A stretch of 64,000 nucleotides of DNA from a virus (IMGVR_UViG_3300045988_158233); one strand, 5' to 3'. Positions 3,759 to 56,501 are shown, numbered from the stretch's first letter. Program-made: numbers and translations. The notes: generated from the letters alone by a model not told the origin.

Positions 3759-5099
3759 ATGACCGAACTTTGCCATACAGGACGCGGGCTGTCCGAAGAG
3801 TTTGATGAAGATTTCCAGAACAGACTGACGGCATATTTTTGTCGTGATCACGAGTTTCTTACTCGTGCGGGAGATCTGGTTGTGCCTAGCCAATTTGCCA
3901 ATGCGGCCAATGCCATATTGGTTAATATGGTTTCGGGCTATTACCGTATGTACAAGAGCGCGCCCTCTTCATCTGCAATTCTGGATATGCTTAAGCGTGC
4001 GAAACGCGATAAGACTATCCGTGAGGAACTATTCGCCGATGTTGTTGCTGCGTTTAAGCGCATCCTTGCAGAAAAATTGTCCGATACCTCGTACATGGTT
4101 GACCAGGTATCAACCTTCGCAAAAAGCGTAGCGTTTGATGATGCTCTGATTAAGGCTGCTGAACTGAAAGAGAAAGGCGACTTTCAGGGGGCGATGGCAA
4201 TCATGGCCAAGGTTCAGCAGATTGGATCGAACGAAGCGACCGGAATCTATGACTACTACACCTCCGCAAGTGAGCGATTGAAAGCGCGTGAATATGAGGC
4301 TTCAGAGGAGTATGTGCCAAACAGCATTACAACTGGACTCCCTCTGCTCGATAGGTTGTTGTACCAAAAAGGCTGGGCGAAGCGTGAAATGGTGCTCTTC
4401 ATGGGGTTCGCTAAATCCGGTAAATCGACCGCAATGGGTGAGTTTTCCATAAACGCAACGCTTGCTGGCTACAATGTTCTGTATCTCTCGCTGGAGGTTC
4501 ACACCACCATTTTATCCGACCGTTTTGATGCAAGATTGTCGGAGACAGAAATGTCCAAGCTAGTGGAACGGCGCGATGAGGTTCATCGTAAGTTGGCAGA
4601 GTTGGGAGCCACGAAGGGGATTGGTAGTTTGTGGGTGGTTGAGCGTCCGTCAGGAAGTATGTCACCGGCAGATCTGGACCGTATGCTTAACAGCATGAAA
4701 GCCAACGGCATGGTGCCTGACATGGTTGTTGTCGACTACGCAGATTTGATGCGTGCCAGTTATGACCTTCGTGATGATCGCGCCAACATTCGTAGTATCT
4801 ACACCGATTTACGTGCTCTTTATGACAAACATAACGTTGCTGGAATCACGGCATCGCAGACAAACCGTGAAGGTGGCGCGTCAGAAGTTGCCACAATGAT
4901 GCACGCCGCCGACAACATCGAAAAAGTACGTATTGCTGACCTGGTAATAACGATCAACAAAACCGAAGAAGAAGAAGCGAAAGGAGAGGCTCGTCTCTAC
5001 TTTGCTGGTTCACGTAACCAGCAGGGAGGGATCAGCATTCGCGTTAAACAAAACCTCGAACAAATGCGCTTCATTGAGCGAATCTTAGACGTTACCTAA
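3759..5099 (+). CDS. DnaB-family replicative DNA helicase (phage gp41-like)
   Basis: Walker A GFAKSGKST, Walker B VVVDYADL, SQTNREG motif, RecA-like C-terminal domain. Confidence 0.75.
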   Translation: MTELCHTGRGLSEEFDEDFQNRLTAYFCRDHEFLTRAGDLVVPSQFANAANAILVNMVSGYYRMYKSAPSSSAILDMLKRAKRDKTIREELFADVVAAFKRILAEKLSDTSYMVDQVSTFAKSVAFDDALIKAAELKEKGDFQGAMAIMAKVQQIGSNEATGIYDYYTSASERLKAREYEASEEYVPNSITTGLPLLDRLLYQKGWAKREMVLFMGFAKSGKSTAMGEFSINATLAGYNVLYLSLEVHTTILSDRFDARLSETEMSKLVERRDEVHRKLAELGATKGIGSLWVVERPSGSMSPADLDRMLNSMKANGMVPDMVVVDYADLMRASYDLRDDRANIRSIYTDLRALYDKHNVAGITASQTNREGGASEVATMMHAADNIEKVRIADLVITINKTEEEEAKGEARLYFAGSRNQQGGISIRVKQNLEQMRFIERILDVT

Positions 5100-13234: not shown

Positions 13235-14455
13235 TTAATTAAAACCGAATGAATTAAGTTCTGCTTTGAATTTATCGACCATTTTTTCAACTTCGTTTAC
13301 AATTGCGTGAATCTCTTCGTCTTTTCTCGGATTAGAATTGAGGTCAAAATATGCCTTATATAAGGCATATTTTGACAAGCTTCCTTCAATATTTTCAGAG
13401 AAAATATTGGTACGACCATCAGTTAATAAGATATCAGCAGATCGGGAATTTAAATTATATTTATAGTAAATCTTTATTAGTCTGCTTATCTCTTTTTCAT
13501 TCTTGATTACCCTCTGTCTTTTACCAGCAATATTAAGACTCCAGCCTACATAACTAGTCAGATCGGAATTAAACTTACACACTTCCGCATCAGCTTTTTC
13601 CATATTTAGATTAATATTATTTCTCATGTGTAGCGGTAATTCGTTGAATTTTTGCTGTAAATGCTGTTTGCAGGGATTGTTGTAAGACCACAGAATTGCG
13701 AACGTAGCTCTTTGCATCCGGGTATTCAGATCGATGTTAAAGTTCTCACGATCACGAATCATTTCATCTACATAAAACTCTACAGCTTTTCGGTATTCTT
13801 TGTTAAAGATCTCGGTAACATACATTTCTAAATAATGGACTTTCGAGATTGCCTCATCAAAAAAAAGCTCACTCTCAAAGAAGTTGTATTTATTTAAGAG
13901 ATTAGAAAGTCTACTTAAGTCATAGGTTTTATTATTTTCAATATTAAGACCAAAAATGGCAATTAACAGACTTACTTTATGATTAATACTGCTACGTAAT
14001 TGAGCTATATAAATTCTCTTTTCATCTTCTGCTGATGACAGTAGATAAAACTCTTTATCTAAATAATTTAAAATTAGAATTATGTGATTTACATATTTAA
14101 TGTAAATAGGTTGTTTTGTTACATAATAATAAATGCTTTTGATGGAATTAATGCTCAATTTCGTATTAAACTCTTTGTCATTCAACAAAGTGTTATTTAC
14201 GTCCTCAAGTAATTTATCATGTTGCTCTAGTAATATTCCGTACCATTCCTTAAAAGAGGCTTTTTTCATTTCAAGAAGTGAATCTGCCGTTAATTGTGTT
14301 GCCTTCATTGCAGCTTTTGCACTATTTCTTGCCTCATAAGCAGCCCAAGCAGTAACAAAAGTAGCAAGTGAACCTATAGCCTCTTTGTATTCTTTAGCCA
14401 CATCCCAAAAAATAATAGTTATTACACACAATATGAGAATTAATATTAAAGGCAT
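13235..14455 (-). CDS. AT-rich membrane-anchored protein of unknown function (candidate accessory/exclusion gene)
   Basis: 406 aa, N-terminal TM helix LILILILCVITIIFW, rich in K/N/I/Y; markedly lower GC than neighbours; opposite strand to flanking genes. Confidence 0.6.
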   Translation of the reverse strand: MPLILILILCVITIIFWDVAKEYKEAIGSLATFVTAWAAYEARNSAKAAMKATQLTADSLLEMKKASFKEWYGILLEQHDKLLEDVNNTLLNDKEFNTKLSINSIKSIYYYVTKQPIYIKYVNHIILILNYLDKEFYLLSSAEDEKRIYIAQLRSSINHKVSLLIAIFGLNIENNKTYDLSRLSNLLNKYNFFESELFFDEAISKVHYLEMYVTEIFNKEYRKAVEFYVDEMIRDRENFNIDLNTRMQRATFAILWSYNNPCKQHLQQKFNELPLHMRNNINLNMEKADAEVCKFNSDLTSYVGWSLNIAGKRQRVIKNEKEISRLIKIYYKYNLNSRSADILLTDGRTNIFSENIEGSLSKYALYKAYFDLNSNPRKDEEIHAIVNEVEKMVDKFKAELNSFGFN

Positions 14456-32302: not shown

Positions 32303-32834
32303 CCGCTGACAGCATACACAATCAACTGCCGCTGATAGCATATCGAGAGTCTATCTCACCGCTCACAGCATACTTTACTCGATTTTTTACCGCTGACAGC
32401 ATACTTAAGACATTGCATGAATAATGTGTACCGGTATGGGTATAACCAGAACAAAATTACCGCTGGCAGCATACGAAGGTCTGATATATGCCATTAATTA
32501 CCGCTGATAGCATATCCAAACAAAAATTCCTCAATAAAACACCGCTGACAGCATACGTTCTATCAGGGAGCAGCAGGCAATAAATACCTTTCACTACAAG
32601 TAATCAGCGCAATGGGAATAGAATGTTAGTGAGCGCAAACCTATATGGAATGCACTCTTCGAGGTTAGTAACCACTGGGGAGGTATAAAAGAGCATTGAG
32701 TGGTGATAGATGATTTACCGCTCACAGCATACGTTTATCTCACTATACCGCTGGTAGCATATCTTTAACCGTTCACAGCATACTTTTCAGAAAAATAGCC
32801 GCTGATAGCATACATTTCACCGCTGACAGCATAT
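32303..32834. repeat. iteron array downstream of repA (incA-like copy-control repeats)
   Basis: About 11 copies of CCGCTGACAGCATAC and variants (ccgctgatagcatat, ccgctcacagcatac, ccgctggcagcatac, ccgttcacagcatac) with irregular spacing. Confidence 0.8.
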
Positions 32835-33928
32835 CAAAGCAGTTTGAGACTATTGGAAAGGATCTCAATCATCTTGATATTTTCAGGCGTCAAATTCTGC
32901 GAAAGTTCAGTTATCTTGTTGATAATGTTCTGTTTAGCATCAATTTCCCCGGCTTTCTCATCTGGTTTTTTGGGTTCGATGTCTTCAGGTTTTGGCGGTG
33001 CGACTTTAAGTTTTGGATTGCGGCTGTGAATCTGGATATAGATCGACCGCCCTCGCTTAATCTCGCTGTATTCGAGATAGCCCAAATCTTGGAGAGCTTT
33101 TAAGCCGTTACGTATAGTCTGATTCTGCGAGCTTACATTCCTGCTACTCAAATTGAGTCGCGCACGCAATCGAGCAAGCGATACCGGCGCAGGCTTGGTT
33201 GGAAGACTTTCGATGAAGGTGTACAGAGCCTGTGCTGTTTCTTTGCGTGGTAGCTTATTGATAACCTTTAACTGCAAAAGAACCTTATGGTCAAAGCGAT
33301 ATAGTTCGGCCAGCTTCGGTTCTGCATAGAACACCACCGTATCTTTCTGCTCGTTGTAGTCCACGCTATTGATGAGGTGCACCATCAGAAGCGAGATCTT
33401 GTTAGAGCCGTCGACGTTCTTTTCTTCATACGTTCTCTGGAAAGACAGAGTTGTACGCATGATCTTCAAAAGACTGTTTGTAAGCCGGTCGCGGAGTGTT
33501 TTGCGGATCTGTGACGATGGATAGCCACAAAACTTCGCAAATTTCGTGATGCTTAACTCGACACGACCGTTAGGTTCGCCGTATTCTGCCAGCGAACGCA
33601 CAACGCCCACCCACGTTTTGAAATCATGATCCATGTCGAGACGAGGACCGGTTATCTTGATATCGGAATAGCCTTCAGAACGGGCTACTTCGAGCTGAAC
33701 AAGCTCCTTTGAAGCATCGATCTCATTTGGCTTGTTACGCTTGCTGTATTTTGTCCCCTTGAGCGTGGGCACGAACAATCCCAGCCGCATCAACGCAATT
33801 GGTTGGACTGTATTGTTGCTATTAGGGACAAGTTCCCCTGTGTACAATTCAAGGGAACCTTCTTCAAAGTTGTCGAGATTATCTTCTACTTCTTTGTTAT
33901 TTTTACCTTTTTTATTTTTTGTGGACAT
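32834..33928 (-). CDS. repA: iteron-binding replication initiator (RepA-like)
   Basis: Gene flanked on both sides by the same 15-bp iterons; start chosen at internal ATG (MSTKNKKGK) just downstream of the upstream iterons; basic N-terminus. Confidence 0.65.
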   Translation of the reverse strand: MSTKNKKGKNNKEVEDNLDNFEEGSLELYTGELVPNSNNTVQPIALMRLGLFVPTLKGTKYSKRNKPNEIDASKELVQLEVARSEGYSDIKITGPRLDMDHDFKTWVGVVRSLAEYGEPNGRVELSITKFAKFCGYPSSQIRKTLRDRLTNSLLKIMRTTLSFQRTYEEKNVDGSNKISLLMVHLINSVDYNEQKDTVVFYAEPKLAELYRFDHKVLLQLKVINKLPRKETAQALYTFIESLPTKPAPVSLARLRARLNLSSRNVSSQNQTIRNGLKALQDLGYLEYSEIKRGRSIYIQIHSRNPKLKVAPPKPEDIEPKKPDEKAGEIDAKQNIINKITELSQNLTPENIKMIEILSNSLKLL

Positions 33929-33949
33929 GTGGACACCTTTGTCATTCAA

Positions 33950-34050
33950 CCGCTGACAGCATACTTGATTTGCCGCTGACAGAATACCAAAAACAGTTGG
34001 CAGCATACGGTGAACCGCTGACAGACTATCAATTACCGCTGACAGCATAC
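33950..34050. repeat. iteron array upstream of repA (origin/incC-like)
   Basis: About 5 copies of CCGCTGACAGCATAC-type repeats between 33950 and 34050. Confidence 0.75.
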
Positions 34051-34087
34051 ATGAACATGGCTTCAGACCAGTCGTGGCGCGGCTTAC

Positions 34088-34165
34088 AGCGATCGGGGAT
34101 CTTATTTGATCTATACAAGGATCTATCTATGGATCTCTTTATTGGGATCTATCCTGTGGATATGT
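34088..34165. promoter_or_regulatory. GATC-rich origin segment with DnaA-box-like site
   Basis: Six GATC within 34091..34149 at 7-12 bp spacing, then TGTGGATAT (8/9 match to DnaA box TGTGGATAA). Confidence 0.55.
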
Positions 34166-34249
34166 GAATAATTAAAACAGGCATTTACTACCTTCGGCGC
34201 ACCTGGTGGGTTATCGTTGCCTCGGCTAACAATCACAGAAAAATGACAT

Positions 34250-34894
34250 ATGGATCTAAAACGCACGCGCTGGGTTCGTCGTCTTGAAGACGGCTCCTAC
34301 ACTATCGAATCAAATTCCAACCTGAATAAGCAGAAGTTGCTTTGTGACATCTGCGGTATAGCGGCGAAGTGCCCGATCTACGAAACCAGAATTAAACTTG
34401 ATAAGGCTGGTGTGAATTTTCATTTAAACAGTTGCATCAGGTACGTTCCATTACTCGCATTTCGTAAACCGATCATCGGATTGGATGCTCCCTACTTCAA
34501 CACACTCCGTTCAGGTGTGACGTGGCGAGATCGTTTATCACCAGACAAGCTGATTTGCCTCGTATCCGCAGACACAGGGAAAATCATCCGTTTTGGGAAA
34601 GTAGACAAGGTTTACTCAGGCCCAGTAGACGAAATGTTGCGGAAACACAGCCGGTTTAATCATCTCTGTATGGGTGGTGAGAAAATCGAGAAGGTAGAAG
34701 AAGTGATCCGCAAATCCTACGGACACTTTCTGACCAAAGATAGCCTGCTCACCGCAATCTACATCAGACATGTAAAACGTGAGTTCGACCTCGAATACCA
34801 CAGCGAAGAAGAGCTTAACCTTGTTGACCCACGTCCAAAAGCTGGCGTCATAAGCATAAACGCAGCGCGTAAAAAGCCCACTGACGCGCTGTAA
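34250..34894 (+). CDS. hypothetical protein
   Basis: 214-aa ORF next to origin. Confidence 0.5.
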   Translation: MDLKRTRWVRRLEDGSYTIESNSNLNKQKLLCDICGIAAKCPIYETRIKLDKAGVNFHLNSCIRYVPLLAFRKPIIGLDAPYFNTLRSGVTWRDRLSPDKLICLVSADTGKIIRFGKVDKVYSGPVDEMLRKHSRFNHLCMGGEKIEKVEEVIRKSYGHFLTKDSLLTAIYIRHVKREFDLEYHSEEELNLVDPRPKAGVISINAARKKPTDAL

Positions 34895-35017
34895 CCCTCC
34901 AGATCGTATATTGGCGTAGATAGAATCTACGCCCCCTCAAAATAGCTCTCATAGCGTTCTACAGTGATCCTGTCTTATTTTTAGTCATACAGACAAGCAA
35001 AGTTGCGCCACGATAAA

Positions 35018-35040
35018 TAGGTATATACTTACTTATAAAT
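35018..35040. promoter_or_regulatory. motif B-like palindrome
   Basis: ataggtatatacttacttat. Confidence 0.3.
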
Positions 35041-48335: not shown

Positions 48336-49145
48336 ATGAGTTCGGTTGAAAATGTAATGACAAATGATGATCTGGATGAGCTGACAGCCATGTTGCAATC
48401 ACTTGATGAACCAGTAAAAAAAGCTGCACAGGTTGAAAATACTGATGATATTGACGATCTGCTTCTCGGCCTCGATGCTGGCGTAGCCATGAGTTCTGAT
48501 GATGTTGCCGAAGAACTGTTCAATGAAGAAAAAGTAGGTGATTTCAGCTCCGCTTTAAATGAGTTGGAATTAGCTCATGAGCCTATAAACGTAATTAACG
48601 CTGAAAGTGTTGAAGCTGCCGTAAACGAGCCAGAACAATTGGGATTTATTGAGGTTGAAGAGTGTGTTGAGGTTAATGAAGAATTAAAAGTTCAACAGTC
48701 AAATGATAGCAATACAAATAAAAAAGCTCGTACTGCAAGAGGTCCTCGTTTTACTTTAAGTGATAAAGATGATTCGTTTTTCAATAAAGCAGGCTTAGAA
48801 AAAGATATTTTCTTAGACGCTTACGATAACGCGCCTGTCAAAGCAAAGGATAAGATATTAAACCTTCTTAATTGGTTTAGCGGAGGTCCAGATATTAGTG
48901 TTTACACGGTAATTTCCATGAGACACCTTCTCACAGAAAAGAAGGCTACAAGTAATAGTATTAAGATTGCTTTAATGAGCAATCCAGAAAAACCGTATCC
49001 GCTTAACACTGCGTCAACTCAGGCTGGGCAAATGATGGCTGTATTTCCAGCTACAGGAATTGCCGTTAGAGACGGTGGAAATCTAACATTGAACGAAGAA
49101 TCACCGATCGTTAAGAAGTTTGTCGCGGAGTACACTATTGGATGA
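48336..49145 (+). CDS. acidic protein of unknown function
   Basis: 269 aa; N-terminal ~120 aa very rich in D/E. Confidence 0.45.
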   Translation: MSSVENVMTNDDLDELTAMLQSLDEPVKKAAQVENTDDIDDLLLGLDAGVAMSSDDVAEELFNEEKVGDFSSALNELELAHEPINVINAESVEAAVNEPEQLGFIEVEECVEVNEELKVQQSNDSNTNKKARTARGPRFTLSDKDDSFFNKAGLEKDIFLDAYDNAPVKAKDKILNLLNWFSGGPDISVYTVISMRHLLTEKKATSNSIKIALMSNPEKPYPLNTASTQAGQMMAVFPATGIAVRDGGNLTLNEESPIVKKFVAEYTIG

Positions 49146-49298
49146 CGTTCCCCTACTGAAAATAAAGCCCATAGAGAGCTTTATAGTGCTGGGTAAGCCA
49201 ATCACATACCCAGCACCACAAAAACGCGCCAGAGAGCTTCTCGTTTGCATTTCTGGCGCGTTTTATTTGATTGCCATACATAAAATCAAATGCAAAAA

Positions 49299-49318
49299 TA
49301 GGTAATCACTTACCTATT
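49299..49318. promoter_or_regulatory. motif B perfect palindrome ATAGGTAA-N4-TTACCTAT
   Basis: ataggtaatcacttacctat, 10-30 bp upstream of methyltransferase ATG. Confidence 0.45.
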
Positions 49319-49922
49319 GAGAAAGAAGATGATTGCAGCCGAAAAAATCAAAAAGCGAAAGCGCGACAACTCTCTTCGTGACCTCTGGAGAACACCTGAC
49401 TGGCTGTTTAATGCCATTCAACGTTATCTGGGAGTGACATTTGATGTTGACGTTGCCTGCAATAAGGACAATGCAAAGCTGCCTATTTTCATAGGCGTTG
49501 AGCGCGATGCTTTGAAATCTGAATGGGGGCAGCCAGGTACAATTGCCTTCCTCAATCCACCCTACTCCAAAATCTCCCCCTGGATTGATGCGGCTATACG
49601 TGAGCAGGCTCGCGGAGTTACAACAGTGATGCTAATTCCTCAATCCCTCGATACAAAGTGGTATGAGCGTGCAACAGAGTGTGCGAATGAGACGATTATT
49701 CTGTCTGGTGGCCGCGTAGCGTTTGTCGAGCCTGACGTCAATCTGGGTCAGGTAGAAGTAAACATCAACCCCGGTGGCAGTATGCTCGTTGTTTTTCGCG
49801 GATTCTGTCAGGACGCTGGGCACTCTATAAGCAAGATCCCTTTGGACGTCATGAAAAGTCTGGGAGGGTATGATCCTGCGAATGTGATCAGGAAAAAAAG
49901 ACCATCAAAGAAGGCTGCTTAG
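49317..49922 (+). CDS. phage-type DNA N6-adenine methyltransferase (Dam-like)
   Basis: FLNPPYS catalytic motif, ~200 aa; probable start ATG 49329. Confidence 0.7.
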   Translation: MRKKMIAAEKIKKRKRDNSLRDLWRTPDWLFNAIQRYLGVTFDVDVACNKDNAKLPIFIGVERDALKSEWGQPGTIAFLNPPYSKISPWIDAAIREQARGVTTVMLIPQSLDTKWYERATECANETIILSGGRVAFVEPDVNLGQVEVNINPGGSMLVVFRGFCQDAGHSISKIPLDVMKSLGGYDPANVIRKKRPSKKAA

Positions 49923-49943
49923 TTTGCTCTGGCGTCTGTAATT

Positions 49944-50003
49944 AGCCTGCTTCTGTATATATAAATAACTACATATTAATTATTAATATACGGAAGCAGG
50001 CTG
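49944..50003 (+). repeat. long AT-rich-loop hairpin, copy 2 of shared element
   Basis: arms agcctgcttctgtatat / atatacggaagcaggct; 3' arm identical to copy at 2843..2858. Confidence 0.45.
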
Positions 50004-50084
50004 TTTTGTATCAGAGACTCCCAGACCTGAACATCACTACAGAATCCACTAGAACCCCTTCCCAGACGCTTTAAAATCGATTTT

Positions 50085-50339
50085 ATGAACCACTTTAAGG
50101 AAACCAACATGTCATACCCGACTAATGTCGTTGCGCTCGTAGAGAGCGATTTTCTGGCCCAGGCTCGTGAAATGATGAAAGATCGTGAGCAGGCCTTCAA
50201 CTTGTACGAATGGGCAATTAAGTGCTTGCATCTTGGCGAGCATCGCGAACTTGTTGAACAGCTTTTAGGTGAGTTGATCAATGAGGTGTTTGCCTTGAAT
50301 GTTCAACTACATGGTAGAGAAAATAATCAATCACAATGA
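50085..50339 (+). CDS. hypothetical small protein
   Basis: ORF; probable start ATG 50109. Confidence 0.35.
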   Translation: MNHFKETNMSYPTNVVALVESDFLAQAREMMKDREQAFNLYEWAIKCLHLGEHRELVEQLLGELINEVFALNVQLHGRENNQSQ

Positions 50340-50860
50340 TAGATAAGTACAAACTATTCATAAAGTGAATTGTAAGTGCTAAGATCTGATAGTTTCCAGT
50401 CGTAGACTGGAGGCTCGATCTGATGGGTGGGGGTAAGCGTCACTGGCGTCAGGTTTAAAAAAGCTCACTACCAGCGTAGAACCGGTGCCGTTTAGGTGTC
50501 GGGGAAGGGGGAACCAAAGTGAGCAGAGACAAGGGTCACTTTATGATTGTCGAGTCTGGGGTGTTTCGAGAGGTTGAATCCAGTACTCCCCTTCATAAAG
50601 TGTGGGAAGATCTCGGTTCTGGGGTGCTGTCATCCATAACTTCCCAAGTCTAAGCTGGCAGTAGACTTAGACCATAGCTTTTCAGGTTATGAAACGACCA
50701 GGTTGGTGAGGAATTTTATACTCACCTCCCTGGGAGAGTATTACCTGAAAAGACAACCTCTCACTTCGTTCGAGGTGAACTTCACTCACTTCGTTCGTTC
50801 AGTTCAGGTTTATAAAAACCTGTTCTGGGAAGTAATTTGTTTATTTTAATAATTATTAAC
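50340..50860 (+). other. structured non-coding region (candidate ncRNA or secondary origin)
   Basis: ~520 bp without ORF of 60 aa or more; several stem-loops, direct repeat cacttcgttcg x2, ends in alternating Pu-Py palindromes cacgcgtgtgcgcacgcg. Confidence 0.3.
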
Positions 50861-50921
50861 ACGCACGCGTGTGCGCACGCGCGAGGAAAAAATCGGCGCG
50901 GCGCTTGATTCAGGAGTTTAT

Positions 50922-51515
50922 ATGACGACGAAGACACCAGCCCGATCGCAAGCAAAAACTCGCAAAAAAGACAAAAACAAAAATTCTCCCCGCACCAATC
51001 CCACAACGCCTGTCGTAGAGTTCAACCCCCAGCTTAAAACCGTGAAAATCTTTAGTGATGGCTCTTGCCTCAAAAATCCGGGTGGCCCGGGCGGTTACGG
51101 TATCGTTCTCCAGTATCGTGGTGAGGAACGCGAGTTCTCAGATGGTTTTCATAGCACCACCAATAACCGCATGGAGATGATGGGGGCACTTATCGGGCTG
51201 GAGCGTTTGAAATATCCATGCAACGTTATTTTGTACTCTGATAGCCAGTATCTGAAAAACGGCATGACACAGTGGATGAAATGGTGGAAACGTAATGGAT
51301 GGATGACTTCTGATAAAAAACCGGTAAAGAATGTTGATCTGTGGAAACGTCTGGATGAGGCCGCAAGTCGACATAATGTTCGCTGGAAGTGGGTTAAAGG
51401 TCACGCCGGGCATCGTGAAAATGAAATATGTGATCGACTCGCGAAGATCGCAGCTTTTTCCGCAGCCGATACGCCTCACAAGAAAGACATTGGTTTTATT
51501 TACAACAAGTGGTAA
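50922..51515 (+). CDS. rnhA: ribonuclease HI
   Basis: [43 protein letters not shown] match RNase HI catalytic motifs; basic N-terminal extension. Confidence 0.8.
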
Positions 51516-51533
51516 GTAAGTGTTTACCTATCA
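51512..51533. promoter_or_regulatory. motif B-like palindrome
   Basis: ggtaagtaagtgtttacctatc overlapping rnhA stop. Confidence 0.35.
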
Positions 51534-51608
51534 TATTAAATCATGTATCTTATCGGCGTCAGGATGACAATGTGTCGGTAAGACACAGTTCCAGGATGGA
51601 ACGAGAAA

Positions 51609-51630
51609 GGCGGCTGGCGATCGCCAGCCG
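51609..51630. other. 22-bp perfect GC-rich palindrome
   Basis: gcggctggcgatcgccagccgc. Confidence 0.5.
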
Positions 51631-51660
51631 CAACTCTTTCTGACACTGGATGGAGTCCAC

Positions 51661-52155
51661 ATGGCACGTCAAACCTATTTCACTTCTGCAACTAAACGTC
51701 CTCGTTCACTACGTCAAATTTTGGCCGAATTATTTAGCGGTCGTGTTCTGTCACGTCTTGATGAACTGGAGACTACCGTTCGGTTGCTGAATGAACGTTT
51801 AGATAAGCAAGCGTCAGTTGTTGCGAACGTGGGGGCGATTGTTACCTCTGGTTCTTCACACCAAGCGAAAAATGCACGGCCTTTAGTGAAGGAGAAAAAC
51901 AACAAGGACAGTTCGAATGGAAAATTTTCAAAGAAAGAGGCTGAAACCAATGGCCTACGTTCTCATTATAGTTTCACTGGCGACGGTAGCCGTTCCAGCC
52001 GGTCAGAGCCTTTTGATGCCGGATTCATCCATCACCACACCTCCGTCGACGACAATTACCACCACTCCAGTAGAGCGTCCTGTCACTCTGGATGGGATGA
52101 CGGTGGATGCGATACCTCAAGTTCATCCAGTTACTCAGGATCATGTTGTGACTAA
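51661..52155 (+). CDS. hypothetical protein with His/Cys-rich C-terminus (frame uncertain)
   Basis: 164-aa ORF; overlaps alternative-frame ORF 51917..52168 that encodes a hydrophobic helix. Confidence 0.3.
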   Translation: MARQTYFTSATKRPRSLRQILAELFSGRVLSRLDELETTVRLLNERLDKQASVVANVGAIVTSGSSHQAKNARPLVKEKNNKDSSNGKFSKKEAETNGLRSHYSFTGDGSRSSRSEPFDAGFIHHHTSVDDNYHHSSRASCHSGWDDGGCDTSSSSSYSGSCCD

Positions 52156-52164
52156 GGTGGTTGT

Positions 52165-52353
52165 ATGAACTGGCTTTCAAATCACTTTGGGAAAATTTGG
52201 CTGGCAATTCTGGCTCTCATGGCCGCCGGTTGGGTATCCAACATTATAAAACTCGTTTGCTCAGGTGATCTCCAGTTTCAGGCTGGCATGACCTTGGCTC
52301 GTGTAGTTGGGATTTTTATTTTTCCAGTCGGTTCGGTACTTGGTTATTTCTGA
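52165..52353 (+). CDS. small membrane protein
   Basis: 62 aa, two hydrophobic helices. Confidence 0.35.
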   Translation: MNWLSNHFGKIWLAILALMAAGWVSNIIKLVCSGDLQFQAGMTLARVVGIFIFPVGSVLGYF

Positions 52354-52409
52354 CGGTTGTTAGTGCATATGCATTGACCGTCTTTGCGTAAGCAATTTAT
52401 GTAACCAGA

Positions 52410-52422
52410 AAACAATTTGTTT
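52410..52422. promoter_or_regulatory. motif A palindrome
   Basis: aaacaatttgttt about 25 bp upstream of ATG 52447. Confidence 0.4.
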
Positions 52423-52446
52423 TGACAAATAGCAAAAGGAAAACAC

Positions 52447-52872
52447 ATGTTAGGTTTCTTCAAAAAGAAAACTCGTAAAGCTGTTATCGAAGTCAAAAAA
52501 ATGGAGAACCGTGATGCGGTTGAAGCCACCGTGTGGGGCGGGTACATGATCTCCTATGCCAACGGTACATGCGATGCAAAAGAAATTTCCATTCTTGAGA
52601 AAACAATTGCAGCTCTGCCTGCATTTTCTCCTTTTGCTGGTGAGATTGCCCAGATGAGCGCCAATATCCGCGCTCAATACGAAGCCTCACCGCGCCGTGC
52701 TAATGCCCAGGCTTTACGTGAGCTGGCGGATGTGGCCGGGACTGATGATGCAGTAGATGTACTGTGTCTGTGCCTTGATATTGCCGACCAGGACGGCATT
52801 GATGAACCAGAAGAGCAGGCGCTGAAAAAGATCGCCCAGGCGCTTCAGTTGTCACTGGATGCTTATCTCTAA
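52447..52872 (+). CDS. TerB-like domain protein (tentative)
   Basis: Two TerB-type acidic motifs: YANGTCDAKEISILEKTI and IADQDGIDEPEEQALKKIAQALQLS. Confidence 0.5.
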   Translation: MLGFFKKKTRKAVIEVKKMENRDAVEATVWGGYMISYANGTCDAKEISILEKTIAALPAFSPFAGEIAQMSANIRAQYEASPRRANAQALRELADVAGTDDAVDVLCLCLDIADQDGIDEPEEQALKKIAQALQLSLDAYL

Positions 52873-53138
52873 TGCTTGAGAGATTCCGGCTTGTGACCGT
52901 CATTGCTCTTCTGGTGATGGCGGTGTTGGTGGATTTTACGGGAAAGATGATGTCTGTCATTTCTGATGGCGTCCTCATTGGTCTGGCGATCTACTTCGCT
53001 TATCCGCTAGTCCGTAAAGCAACGTGTTAATGACAAGGGCCAAATGGCCCTTGTGTTTCGTTGACCGAAATAGAGAGTTTGCACCTTTACGTTTAGCTTG
53101 CTCCCCTTTTATGCCACATCACAATAAAGCCAATAAGA

Positions 53139-53151
53139 AAACAACTTGTTT
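53139..53151. promoter_or_regulatory. motif A palindrome
   Basis: aaacaacttgttt about 19 bp upstream of ATG 53170. Confidence 0.4.
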
Positions 53152-53169
53152 AAGCATTAGGAAAAACAC

Positions 53170-53739
53170 ATGTGCAAGAAATGCAAAGCGATAGCTGATG
53201 AACAAAACGCCTTATTCGAAGAAATGGATGCTAATGAACTGGTCAAAATGTTAGCCATTCTTCGAGGAATAGAAGACGTTTCCATATTTGAGAGAGTGGT
53301 TACAGCACTTAATTTTGAGTCCACCTTTGAAGAGCCAACTCAGGTTGTAGCTTTAGCACATCATTTCGGTGTTCATTATCTTGCTGAAAAAGAGCGCGCT
53401 GATAAGTTGCAGGCGACTTTGGATATGGTGAGCGAGACTCAACGAACTGATGACACTAACAAGAGTGAGGCGATTATTGCCAGCAAAGATCGTGAAATTG
53501 CTGGGCTTAAATCCTCTCTAACGATGTTGATGTCTGCGTTCAATCTTATGTCTTCTCAGGCGGGTTATAAAATGCCATCACTAAACAGCGATGATCCGAT
53601 GGCCGTTCGTCAGCTTTTGGGAGCAATGGCCGACCAACTCGACGACACAAAGAGTCGCCTTGAAGACATGATGCGTGAGTTAAGCCATCGACATAACCTC
53701 GCAACACAACCACACAAAGTCTTTCAAAGCTCTAATTGA
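53170..53739 (+). CDS. hypothetical protein
   Basis: 189-aa ORF, N-terminal CKKC. Confidence 0.45.
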   Translation: MCKKCKAIADEQNALFEEMDANELVKMLAILRGIEDVSIFERVVTALNFESTFEEPTQVVALAHHFGVHYLAEKERADKLQATLDMVSETQRTDDTNKSEAIIASKDREIAGLKSSLTMLMSAFNLMSSQAGYKMPSLNSDDPMAVRQLLGAMADQLDDTKSRLEDMMRELSHRHNLATQPHKVFQSSN

Positions 53740-53793
53740 TCTGATATGGCCGCATGATCGGCCATATTGTGTTGATAAAAACAAGGGTGAAAA

Positions 53794-54075
53794 ATGGCAT
53801 ACGGTACAGGGATTTACAACAATAAAGGAATTAACGTTACTGGCTTCCTTACACCTATTTTTTTTCTTGATCGATTTACGGCGTCATCAGGCTCTAAGAC
53901 GTACTCTAATCCGCCACCGGGTAAATCACTACATGCCGTGTGGTCATTAATGCCTCTTAACAACGACAACTACATCAATTTACCTGTTCCAAATGTTACT
54001 ATTAATGGAAATACGGTTAGTTGGTCAAATTTATATACGGGGCTTGGTTCTTACATATACACATACTGGGGATAA
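53794..54075 (+). CDS. hypothetical protein (low GC)
   Basis: 93 aa, Asn/Thr/Gly/Tyr-rich. Confidence 0.4.
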   Translation: MAYGTGIYNNKGINVTGFLTPIFFLDRFTASSGSKTYSNPPPGKSLHAVWSLMPLNNDNYINLPVPNVTINGNTVSWSNLYTGLGSYIYTYWG

Positions 54076-54077
54076 TT

Positions 54078-54692
54078 ATGTTCGGGATGTCAATTACTCA
54101 ATCAGATGGAAGTTTGTGGATGAGTCCAGAATTTACTCCGCAAAATCTGATTAATAAAGGGACAATGTCTACATCTAAAGGTTCTGTTTTTCAAACATCA
54201 ATCCCATCAAACAAATCATGTTTTTTTTTCATAAAAAGCAGTAATAAGGCGAACATGATGTTTATTCATGAGCATAGTAACGGATACAATGCTCTCAGAT
54301 TGCATCAGGTAAATGGTAGCCCCGGAACAATAACAGTTTATGCTTTTTCTGATATGGTGTTACCACATTCTGGCTATGGCATTGCCATGTATAACAGCGC
54401 AGGCGCAATGGTGTATCACGGTGAGATGATGCCCCTTGATGCGAAACTTATCACTATTTCTGACCCTCAATTTACAATAGATATGGGGTATCCATGTGCG
54501 GTAATGCCTGCTATGGTTGGAGTATATAACTATAGACGAACCGATTACGACAGACCTGTCTATGTAACAATGACAGGTGCAACTGGAAACCAAGTATATA
54601 ACGGTCAATGGTATTCCGGTAATGTCACATGGGATATTAAGAAGATTTATACAAACAAAATTCTGGTGATAAATACCTCCAAGTATGATTAG
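54078..54692 (+). CDS. hypothetical protein (low GC) containing T9 tract
   Basis: 204 aa from ATG 54078; T9 homopolymer at 54221..54229 in coding frame. Confidence 0.45.
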   Translation: MFGMSITQSDGSLWMSPEFTPQNLINKGTMSTSKGSVFQTSIPSNKSCFFFIKSSNKANMMFIHEHSNGYNALRLHQVNGSPGTITVYAFSDMVLPHSGYGIAMYNSAGAMVYHGEMMPLDAKLITISDPQFTIDMGYPCAVMPAMVGVYNYRRTDYDRPVYVTMTGATGNQVYNGQWYSGNVTWDIKKIYTNKILVINTSKYD

Positions 54693-54758
54693 CCAATGCC
54701 TTTATTTGAAGGATTGCCTGTTTATTTCTATTTAGTACCTTTTCATTTTTGAAATAAT

Positions 54759-54793
54759 TGCACCATTAAACAAATCACTTCTTAATGGTGCAA
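54759..54793. promoter_or_regulatory. 12-bp perfect inverted repeat spanning RBS/start region of methyltransferase gene
   Basis: ttgcaccattaa ... ttaatggtgcaa separated by 10 nt, ending 3 bp before ATG 54796. Confidence 0.45.
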
Positions 54794-54795
54794 TT

Positions 54796-56481
54796 ATGAA
54801 TACAGCCCTTTCCATCATCGACGATGCCAACTCAAACACTGCTATCGACTATCGGCAGGAAATGAACGTCATCCACGAAATTGTGGCCGAGTGCGAGAAA
54901 GAGATCGCCTTCATGTATCAGGTTCACGACTTCGTTTATGGCGACGAACGCCACAACATGATTAATCGCCTGCTGAGACTAAACCATCGACCAGATGAAG
55001 ATCGCTCGCGTTTAAATCGAGGTTGGTTGGATAAAGTCGATCTGGAATGGGTGAAACAGAATATTTGGGCCGAGTACTGGAGGAAGGTCACGGACATGAC
55101 TAACGTTTTGCTGATCATGCCAGCTTCCCGTCGAGATGAGTGGCGCGAGCAGTTTATAGAGGGCAAACAGGAAGTCATCAAAACTGACAGAACCGGCTAC
55201 CAGATGAAGGTTAAAGAGTTCGTTGGTGTACCGGAGTTCAAAGCAGAAACGGTCATACCCACGATGCTTAATTTGCTGAATGACAGGCACAAATATCTCT
55301 CTGAGCGCGTGTATGGCTTGTTTAAGGCGCTGAGTCCTGCGCACAAGACAAATAAGACAAACGGTTTCAGCGAGCGTCTGATAATCGCTGACTGCATTTC
55401 TGATTTCTGGCGGGACAGCGTTAGCGTGAACTATCGCAAAGAGGACTACATCGACGATCTGCGTGTCTTGCTTCATTTCTTCGCGCACAAAGAATTTATT
55501 ACCATCAACCGCACTGCTGAGGTGCTATCAGCTGCGTATCGGGCAAACGACTGCCAGACCGGTGACTGGATGAACGTCGATGGAAATCTGATGCGCGTGA
55601 AGATGTTCAAGAACGGCAACGTTCACTTTGAAATACATCCTGACGTGGCCTGGAAGTTGAATGAGGTGCTGGCTTACAGTATGCCTGCTGCAATTCCCGC
55701 GCCATGCCGAACTGCGCCAAAAACACGGGCACCAAAGCAGTTCGGGTTAATCCAGAAGACGATCTCCGTGCCGGTTCGCACTGCGCTTCGTGACGGGCGA
55801 TTTAGCAAAGACAAAGGCGTATGGTACTTCTCTGATTCAGCTCTCCAGAAGTCGCAGGTGGAAGAGCTTGAGCGCACACTGAGCTTCATTGGCGGCGTGC
55901 AGGAGAAAAAGCACTGGCAGTTCCCGTATGAGATCGGCCATACGCTAAATACGATTGTGGCTACCGGTTTAATACCGGATACAAAATCACACCAGTTCTA
56001 CCCTACCCCACGCTTGATTGCTGAGTACGTTGCCAGAGCCACTGAATTGAAGCCTGGTGAGAAGTTGTTGGAGCCTCAAGCCGGACGTGGGGATCTTCTG
56101 GCCTATATTAACGCCGATCTGGAAGATGTTACCTGCATAGAAATCGCACCTCTCTTCGCTGATATCCTGCGTGGAAAAGGGTATACGAACACGATTTGCT
56201 GCGACTTCATAAAGTGGTCTGAGGACAACGCAGGTTATCAGTTCGACAAAATCGTTATGAACCCGCCGTACTCGCTTGGTCGTCATAGAGAGCACACGCT
56301 GGCTGCGCTGGGGCATCTGAAAGTCGGCGGGCGTCTTGTAGCAGTATTGCCGGGCACTGCGCCAATACTGGACTGGATGACGATGGATAATTACGTTTAT
56401 GCCAGAGGGAAGTCGTTTACCAACGAGTTTGAAGACACAGGGATCACAGTCAGCGTATACGTTTTCAAACGCGTTAAATGA
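54796..56481 (+). CDS. DNA methyltransferase with ~380-aa N-terminal domain of unknown function
   Basis: C-terminal SAM motif LLEPQAGRGDL followed by catalytic VMNPPYS (amino-MTase). Confidence 0.65.
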   Translation: MNTALSIIDDANSNTAIDYRQEMNVIHEIVAECEKEIAFMYQVHDFVYGDERHNMINRLLRLNHRPDEDRSRLNRGWLDKVDLEWVKQNIWAEYWRKVTDMTNVLLIMPASRRDEWREQFIEGKQEVIKTDRTGYQMKVKEFVGVPEFKAETVIPTMLNLLNDRHKYLSERVYGLFKALSPAHKTNKTNGFSERLIIADCISDFWRDSVSVNYRKEDYIDDLRVLLHFFAHKEFITINRTAEVLSAAYRANDCQTGDWMNVDGNLMRVKMFKNGNVHFEIHPDVAWKLNEVLAYSMPAAIPAPCRTAPKTRAPKQFGLIQKTISVPVRTALRDGRFSKDKGVWYFSDSALQKSQVEELERTLSFIGGVQEKKHWQFPYEIGHTLNTIVATGLIPDTKSHQFYPTPRLIAEYVARATELKPGEKLLEPQAGRGDLLAYINADLEDVTCIEIAPLFADILRGKGYTNTICCDFIKWSEDNAGYQFDKIVMNPPYSLGRHREHTLAALGHLKVGGRLVAVLPGTAPILDWMTMDNYVYARGKSFTNEFEDTGITVSVYVFKRVK

Positions 56482-56501
56482 TAGGTAAATACTTACTTAA
56501 T
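56480..56501. promoter_or_regulatory. motif B-like palindrome
   Basis: gataggtaaatacttacttaat overlapping MTase stop. Confidence 0.35.

Follow-up and report, generated by a model that had tools for sequence, protein, structure and literature searches.

The question raised by positions 49,299 to 56,481 of IMGVR_UViG_3300045988_158233, a viral stretch of 64,000 nucleotides (the window), is what two DNA methyltransferase genes without an endonuclease partner do for the element that carries them, and how the larger of the two is controlled. The small gene encodes a Dam-like enzyme, and the large gene encodes a protein of 561 amino acids with a methyltransferase core at its C-terminus and the domain DUF4942 in its N-terminal region. 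The products of both genes are predicted to be N6-adenine-type amino-methyltransferases. It is reasonably probable that both orphan enzymes methylate the element's own DNA, as judged from family membership and genomic context, leading to resistance against restriction in the next host, that the DUF4942 region acts as a scaffold, and that production of the large enzyme is throttled by a hairpin in its mRNA.

Regarding the element, the window is an SSU5-like phage-plasmid of E. coli, because the gene order around the stretch is shared with Escherichia phage Cyrano, Salmonella phage SSU5 and Klebsiella pJN2-26. The syntenic order runs through ribonucleotide reductase, ThyX, DHFR, a 3'-5' exonuclease, the Dam-like methylase, RNase HI, a TerB/TciA-like protein, the DUF4942 protein and Ead/Ea22-like proteins. 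The 7.2-kb stretch is 100% identical to the E. coli plasmid CP056300.1 (110 kb), 99.3% identical to a RefSeq-annotated E. marmotae plasmid and 98% identical to Cyrano, and 58-65% of it can be aligned to SSU5 and the Klebsiella phage-plasmids. Both methylase genes lie within a one-directional early/replication block and are conserved core genes of SSU5-like phage-plasmids. They are already present in public records, the small one as "phage N-6-adenine-methyltransferase" and the large one as "DUF4942 domain-containing protein" or "DNA modification methylase". Orphan methylases are commonplace in the early regions of temperate phages, so that finding them here is expected and leaves current ideas unchallenged. 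Uncharacterised are the hairpin that covers the start of translation and the DUF4942 domain, which is obligate, highly conserved and not assignable to a known fold. A literature search found no experimental characterisation of DUF4942, of SSU5 or phage-plasmid methyltransferases or methylomes, or of the pHCM2 methylase, and, within the library searched, no paper that ties DUF4942 to a methylase of known function. Phage-plasmids of the SSU5 type occur commonly in E. coli, Salmonella and Klebsiella, and restriction evasion affects their host range.

By its profile matches, the small gene is a clear member of the phage mini-Dam family (PF05869 / TIGR01712). It scores 128.6 bits against the PF05869 Dam profile (cutoff 28.1) and 113 bits against TIGR01712 (cutoff 97.05; profile positions 5-162 of 165 covered), matches phrog_111 at 7e-66, and is also recognized by the orphan methyltransferase models of PADLOC. 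The initial annotation had placed a Dam-like gene with the motif FLNPPYS at 49317..49922. The family and the motif hold, but the start is most likely the ATG at 49329 rather than the TTG at 49317; the ATG is the annotated start in Cyrano and in the RefSeq annotation of the E. marmotae plasmid, and the TTG falls within a palindrome termed motif B. The gene is thus taken to span 49329..49922 (plus strand), and its product of 197 amino acids has the catalytic NPPY at residues 76-79. Relatives were found by tblastn in 1983 phage records, with approximately 39% identity to the methylases of Stx/lambdoid phages and approximately 30% to those of T1-like phages. We take T1 Dam and the Stx-phage enzyme VT2 Dam (M.EcoVT2Dam) to be members of the mini-Dam family. 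The enzyme resembles this family in its length of approximately 200 amino acids, its NPPY motif, the lack of a separate recognition domain, and its phage-borne and orphan character, and it differs in that its gene belongs to a phage-plasmid and is preceded by a conserved, operator-like palindrome. M.EcoVT2Dam, a methylase from an Stx2 prophage that may belong to the family of the small gene, has been reported to target GATC (PMC6602927). Judging from the family name and this report, the small enzyme most probably makes G6mATC.

The large gene is the open reading frame at 54796..56481 (plus strand), and its C-terminal methyltransferase motifs are as first described, LLEPQAGRGDL at residues 424-434 and VMNPPYS at residues 487-493. 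Residues 396-561 (55981..56481) form the catalytic core and align to M.TaqI across motif X (HQFYPTP), motif I (LEPQAGRG) and motif IV (NPPY, residues 489-492). The acidic residue of motif II (E449) and the D-F pair of motif III (470-471) are kept across 26 homologues. The motifs follow the linear order X, I, II, III, IV and the core has an M.TaqI-like fold, both of which are features of the gamma class. When the family profile was compared with PDB sequences, EcoR124 HsdM and M.TaqI ranked first. The alignment to M.TaqI together with this ranking indicates that the core is an N6-adenine amino-methyltransferase of gamma order.

At the start of the large gene, a perfect 12-bp inverted repeat had been described (54759..54793). 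The repeat is real and perfect, but its arms are 16 bp long, not 12: ATAATTGCACCATTAA at 54754-54769 and TTAATGGTGCAATTAT at 54782-54797 are separated by a 12-nt loop, and the right arm reaches into the ATG (54754..54797, plus strand). It is one of three perfect inverted repeats of at least 13 nt in the window, and its sequence has no second occurrence there. When folded as RNA, the leader reaches -19.1 kcal/mol (z -5.26), and 0 of 200 shuffled sequences were as stable. The 16-bp RNA stem pairs both the GGUG Shine-Dalgarno-like element, five bases upstream of AUG, and the AU of the AUG itself. Leaders collected from 56 plasmid, phage and viral-contig loci reduce to 19 distinct sequences, which fall into three classes. 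In class A, to which this window and Cyrano belong, the stem is 16 bp long, and most of the relatives sampled have a weaker form of it. The class B leaders (pECOH89 and E. albertii) form 12 bp, ATAATTACACCA / TGGTGTAATTAT, and a G-C pair of class A is replaced there with A-U by changes on both sides. Class C (SSU5, Enterobacter and Cronobacter) mainly keeps the CACCA/UGGUG core. Across the alignment, this core pairs in 16-17 of 17 leaders. The compensatory change in the alignment amounts to one G-C/A-U double change (4 vs 4 sequences), C-to-U changes confined to the left arm retain G.U pairs in two variants of class A, and 79% of the alignment cells pair in the proposed register, compared with 23-52% in slid registers. 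These patterns suggest that the start-site palindrome is more like an mRNA hairpin occluding the ribosome-binding site than a generic palindrome. In phage Mu, the translation start of the DNA-modification gene mom is sequestered in an mRNA stem-loop and is under Com-dependent translational control. The large gene is similar to mom in this regulatory logic of an occluded start, without a sequence relation and without an identified Com-like activator. A search of Rfam gave no match near the gathering score of any family in 48-58 kb.

The block from 54738 to 54795 (plus strand), immediately upstream of the large gene, contains a conserved -10-like element, GA(A/T)AAT, which the left arm of the repeat overlaps. 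Similarity to relatives without the moron cassette described below begins at this block. In SSU5 and pECOH89, a strong terminator lies approximately 100 nt upstream of the methylase leader, and the large gene must therefore have its own promoter in the leader block. How much of the stem the mRNA holds depends on where transcription starts. A conserved upstream block, CTTTTAYGCCTTTTC, was considered as a repeated promoter element and found unconvincing, with 11 matches at 3 mismatches against 4.7 expected and no close copy.

A two-gene moron cassette (53794-54692) is located immediately upstream of the large gene in the window; its products match phrog_557 ("outer membrane protein") and phrog_425 ("membrane associated protein"), and its DNA shares approximately 78-79% identity with phages JenP1 and BRET. 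At this site, SSU5 lacks a moron cassette, and its antirepressor lies farther upstream. Insertion of the cassette displaced the terminator found in front of the methylase leader in SSU5 and pECOH89. A general association between a stronger hairpin and the loss of this terminator was rejected, as the pECOH89 lineage has both the 12-bp hairpin and the terminator.

The N-terminal region of the large protein had been called uncharacterised, and a domain search of it had been proposed. It does lack a match to any solved fold, but it is not wholly unknown, since residues 140-295 match Pfam DUF4942 (PF13708) with 73.9 bits against a gathering score of 25, and phrog_6263 matches the protein end to end at 8.9e-300. 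Upstream of the core, three segments can be distinguished. Residues 1-80 (54796..55035, plus strand) are a lineage-variable helical segment with 6-30% identity in homologues that are less than 50% identical overall. Residues 81-328 (55036..55779, plus strand) are the conserved DUF4942 core, a mixed alpha/beta fold without a solved relative. Residues 329-395 (55780..55980, plus strand) are a variable sub-domain joined to the catalytic core. The domain-wise identities thus place the variable parts of the protein at residues 1-80 and 329-395. In elements of Providencia and Xenorhabdus, residues 81-328 are 52-58% identical and the catalytic core 50-55%; in distant homologues, the corresponding values are 37-41% and 39-43%.

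The N-terminal region was searched against 1.84 billion cluster representatives, and 610 representative clusters were matched. Among the best 150 of these 610 representatives, 134 are full length (median 536 amino acids), and NPP[YFW] is found near the C-terminus in 131 of the 134, which indicates that the DUF4942 region and the methyltransferase core are an obligate pair. A full-length relative of the large gene was also found by tblastn in more than 2000 plasmid records. At 561 amino acids, the large protein falls within the total length of approximately 500-590 that goes with this architecture. In a widespread family of enzymes, the N-terminal domain is thus obligatory and highly conserved, and it is not something peculiar to this element. 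As the family comprises at least 610 clusters at 50% identity, one established specificity would inform many annotations that now read "DUF4942 domain-containing protein".

The mosaic homologue P0044 is 84-92% identical to the large protein over residues 1-328 and approximately 50% identical over residues 329-561, where it resembles the Klebsiella type, the sub-domain 329-395 having been exchanged along with the core. This pattern points to a recombination event at the boundary between DUF4942 and the methylase module, near residue 329. Because P0044 breaks near this position and phrog_9133 matches residues 329-560, residues 329-561 act as one exchangeable module. A separable module consisting of the first 62 residues was also considered and rejected; the one Klebsiella plasmid case inspected is a gene remnant of 71 amino acids beside a Type I system. 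This open reading frame (L006 6001-6216, plasmid NZ_MN543585.1) is labelled "restriction endonuclease subunit M" and lies next to a Type I restriction-modification operon. Other Klebsiella plasmids (matches H50, H51 and H70) contain short stretches that share 64-67% identity with the opening 43-68 codons of the gene for the DUF4942 methylase, and these look like decayed gene fragments.

In M.TaqI and other gamma-class enzymes (PDB 2ibs and 1aqi; M.BseCI and CamA), the target-recognition domain is C-terminal to the core. In contrast, the large protein ends with its core at residue 561 and is preceded by approximately 395 residues of an unrelated, unsolved fold, which match no solved target-recognition domain. 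Searches of BFVD and PDB revealed neither a nuclease nor a helix-turn-helix nor a known recognition domain concealed in the N-terminal region: the BFVD search with the N-terminal model returned only two weak matches, to uncharacterised or mislabelled viral proteins, and the matches of the PDB profile search with the large-protein family were confined to the catalytic core. DUF4942 is most likely a substrate-holding scaffold for DNA binding or target recognition. A recognition domain of such high conservation would be unusual; either the family has one common target, or residues 329-395 set the specificity on a conserved scaffold, or DUF4942 is not a reader of sequence.

Taken as a mechanism, both enzymes would methylate the DNA of the element while it replicates lytically, and perhaps to a small extent also when it is a plasmid. 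The small enzyme would probably act at GATC sites, including a cluster at the origin next to repA that it would keep methylated, and the large enzyme would act at an adenine target with its core held to DNA by the DUF4942 scaffold. Genomes that are packaged or newly established would then face less restriction, independent of host Dam. Translation of the large enzyme would probably be held down by the leader hairpin that buries GGUG and AUG, and motif B, in front of the Dam-like gene, would probably be bound by an element-encoded regulator.

Several points weigh against this explanation. E. coli hosts have Dam, and a GATC enzyme therefore protects only in Dam-negative hosts or during rapid lytic replication. 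Sequence does not reveal the methylation specificity of either enzyme. Conservation is as high in the DUF4942 core as in the catalytic core, whereas target-recognition domains usually diverge fastest. As for the hairpin, a formal covariation test was not significant against shuffles and there is one compensatory pair; because the shuffle control was not exceeded, the covariation is suggestive only. The Klebsiella leader (pJN2-26) is without the CACCA element, and a transcript begun at the -10-like element might miss part of the hairpin.

One alternative concerns the start-site repeat, which may act as DNA, with no mRNA hairpin involved. It would be an operator that covers both the -10 element and the start codon and is bound by a dimeric repressor, for which the methylase itself is a possible candidate. 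Some orphan and restriction-modification methylases autoregulate at their own promoters. The overlap of the left arm with the -10-like element is in keeping with an operator, and the paired change from G-C to A-T would also be expected from concerted evolution of half-sites. However, the two one-arm C-to-T changes, which are independent, break the symmetry of the DNA and keep G.U pairing in RNA. The other sampled lineages, one Klebsiella leader excepted, retain no more of the stem than the anti-Shine-Dalgarno CACCA/UGGUG core, in keeping with an occluded ribosome-binding site. The uniqueness of the repeat in the window and the absence of a helix-turn-helix fold in the large protein also argue against an operator, which is regarded as possible but doubtful.

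A second alternative to methylation of the element's DNA at a recognized target is that the large enzyme is a low-specificity methylase acting on single strands or alongside replication, with DUF4942 not reading sequence but directing it to replication intermediates or single-stranded DNA, functionally like M.EcoGIX. This proposal draws on a free-standing methyltransferase of 187 amino acids on the IncF plasmid pEK516 (WP_001298559.1; L001 5914-6477), whose gene is flanked by a DUF3560 gene and ssb in the leading region of the plasmid and which is a homologue of residues 398-555 (hhalign probability 99.6%, E 4.7e-24). The same kind of match was found by tblastn in many other E. coli, Shigella and Klebsiella plasmids of 45-210 kb. 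This protein shares end-to-end homology with the catalytic module and is likewise an orphan on a mobile element; it differs in being without the DUF4942 region, and its neighbour is a DUF3560 protein unrelated to DUF4942. As it is free-standing, the core can work without a fused recognition domain. The idea that DUF3560 is a split-off equivalent of DUF4942 was rejected (hhalign probability 0.2%).

The unusual conservation of the DUF4942 core for a recognition domain also favours an enzyme of single strands or replication, as does the occurrence of distant homologues in prophage replication modules, beside lambda P-like and DnaT-like genes. M.EcoGIX shows that biology of this sort exists (PMC7736820), and M.EcoGIX-type enzymes are orphan methylases of mobile elements that protect incoming DNA (PMC4288162, PMC7736820). 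M.EcoGIX is, however, a different enzyme, described in the literature as a beta-class protein of 227 amino acids with DPPY (684 bp). Homology of the core to M.EcoGIX was accordingly rejected, as the core combines gamma order with NPPY and has its counterpart on plasmids in a separate, homologous gene for 187 amino acids; on pEK516, the M.EcoGIX counterpart is another gene, annotated "DNA methylase", a few kb from it. M.EcoGIX and M.BceJIII, which are single-strand SAY methylases of plasmid leading regions, may possibly share their biology with the large enzyme, with no homology to it. Furthermore, no replisome-binding or single-stranded-DNA-binding fold was detected in the N-terminal model, and no characterisation of the 187-residue relative was found. 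On balance, such an activity of the large enzyme is considered unlikely.

A bolder version of the scaffold idea holds that DUF4942 is a new substrate-handling domain, which does not read sequence and couples the minimal NPPY core either to replication intermediates or single-stranded DNA or to one family-wide specificity, and that the hairpin is a gate in need of a specific trigger. This is improbable. If DUF4942 did handle the substrate and the hairpin did gate translation, the large enzyme would be the phage-side counterpart of the anti-restriction methylases in the leading regions of conjugative plasmids, and would represent an unrecognised class of mobile elements' enzymes.

Whether the large protein might methylate RNA (rRNA, tRNA or phage RNA) instead of DNA has to be considered, since the NPPY core is common to DNA and RNA amino-methyltransferases and the fold alone does not discriminate the substrate. 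The highest identities and the best profile E-values go to the DNA methylases M.TaqI, CamA and EcoR124 HsdM, the Type II methyltransferase models of PADLOC match the core at 2e-10, and the genomic company consists of other orphan DNA methylases in phage early regions. DNA is therefore judged the more likely substrate, and an RNA methylase very unlikely.

The absence of an adjacent endonuclease, as claimed in the initial annotation, was borne out. The flanking open reading frames searched against Pfam, NCBIfam, PHROGs and PADLOC have no nuclease, restriction or defence-system matches, the annotation of the 64 kb examined of CP056300.1 lists no restriction enzyme, and no cognate endonuclease was found encoded next to either gene, so that neither belongs to a restriction-modification system by this definition. 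The neighbour of the large gene differs between relatives, being the moron cassette in the window, the antirepressor Ant in SSU5, UmuC in Enterobacter and ParDE in Providencia, and the methylase stays in place. In lambdoid prophages, distant homologues (31-36% identity) occupy the early regions together with neighbouring orphan methylases from unrelated families, again with no endonuclease. That the genes are the methylase halves of restriction-modification or defence systems with an unrecognised nuclease partner is hardly credible, for although several flanking open reading frames have no known family and the core matches the PADLOC mad2 model, this match is limited to the generic methyltransferase core, no nuclease family was matched, and the flanking genes vary between relatives around fixed methylase genes.

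The region upstream of the small gene has the layout of a separately regulated unit, in which a terminator-like repeat is followed by a promoter-like match and then by motif B. The terminator-like inverted repeat (49221..49264, plus strand) has perfect 13-bp arms, AAAACGCGCCAGA / TCTGGCGCGTTTT, follows the upstream gene (48336..49145), and sets the Dam-like gene apart as its own transcription unit. The sigma-70-like promoter match (49271..49299, plus strand) consists of TTGCCA, a 17-nt spacer and AAAAAT, together with a TG extension; the match is to the consensus alone, and it abuts motif B. The palindrome noted in front of the Dam-like gene is indeed a perfect motif B, AATAGGTAA-TCAC-TTACCTATT (49297-49318), located between the promoter-like site and the ATG, and is a probable operator.

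The consensus of motif B is aT-AGGTAA-N4-TTACCT-At. With at most 2 mismatches allowed, 12 matches were found against 1.9 expected, and the copy at 49297-49318 is the only perfect one. The 16-bp cores in the window begin at 2945, 14591, 16637, 35019, 39703, 49300, 51514 and 56483. The copy at 51514..51529 (1 mismatch) overlaps the stop codon of rnhA and is found at the same position in Cyrano, SSU5, pJN2-26 and the Cronobacter element. The copy at 56483..56498 (1 mismatch) begins 2 nt after the stop codon of the large gene, approximately 45 nt before the next ATG (56543), and its position is conserved in relatives. Cyrano, SSU5, pJN2-26 and the Cronobacter element have the same three positions, although in pJN2-26 and Cronobacter the copy behind the large gene is degenerate; in the relatives, the sites were located at 4971/7224/11498 (L004), 3002/5223/9316 (L005) and 1488/3719/7706 (L008). 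Motif B is thus a dispersed palindrome at gene boundaries, with positions conserved across SSU5-like elements of four genera. At the shared positions, the arms are conserved and the 4-nt centres vary, as seen for the copy before the Dam-like gene in SSU5, pJN2-26 and Cronobacter, implying that the sites are probably the operator set of an element-encoded regulator. This pattern fits a dimeric DNA-binding regulator that marks the heads of transcription units better than an RNA hairpin.

The origin had been described as GATC-rich, and 13 GATC sites were counted in 34001-35000, compared with approximately 4 per kb elsewhere. Six of them lie in GGATCT repeats spaced by approximately 12 bp within 59 bp (34091..34149), immediately upstream of an open reading frame for a Rep3-type initiator (32834..34048, minus strand). 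This layout of a GATC cluster beside an initiator gene recalls the Dam-sensitive origins oriC and P1 oriR, and the cluster is a plausible substrate for GATC methylation. The copy of motif B at 35019 is approximately 0.9 kb from the cluster.

Between the two methylase genes, a TerB-family gene and a DUF3927 gene occupy 52447-53030. The pair is annotated as P1 TciA/TciB-like in Cyrano, and the relatives examined from Klebsiella, Cronobacter and Enterobacter have kept it. Elsewhere in the window, the longest perfect inverted repeat is a 34-bp palindrome without a spacer, GTCAAAATATGCCTTAT / ATAAGGCATATTTTGAC, at 13343-13376.

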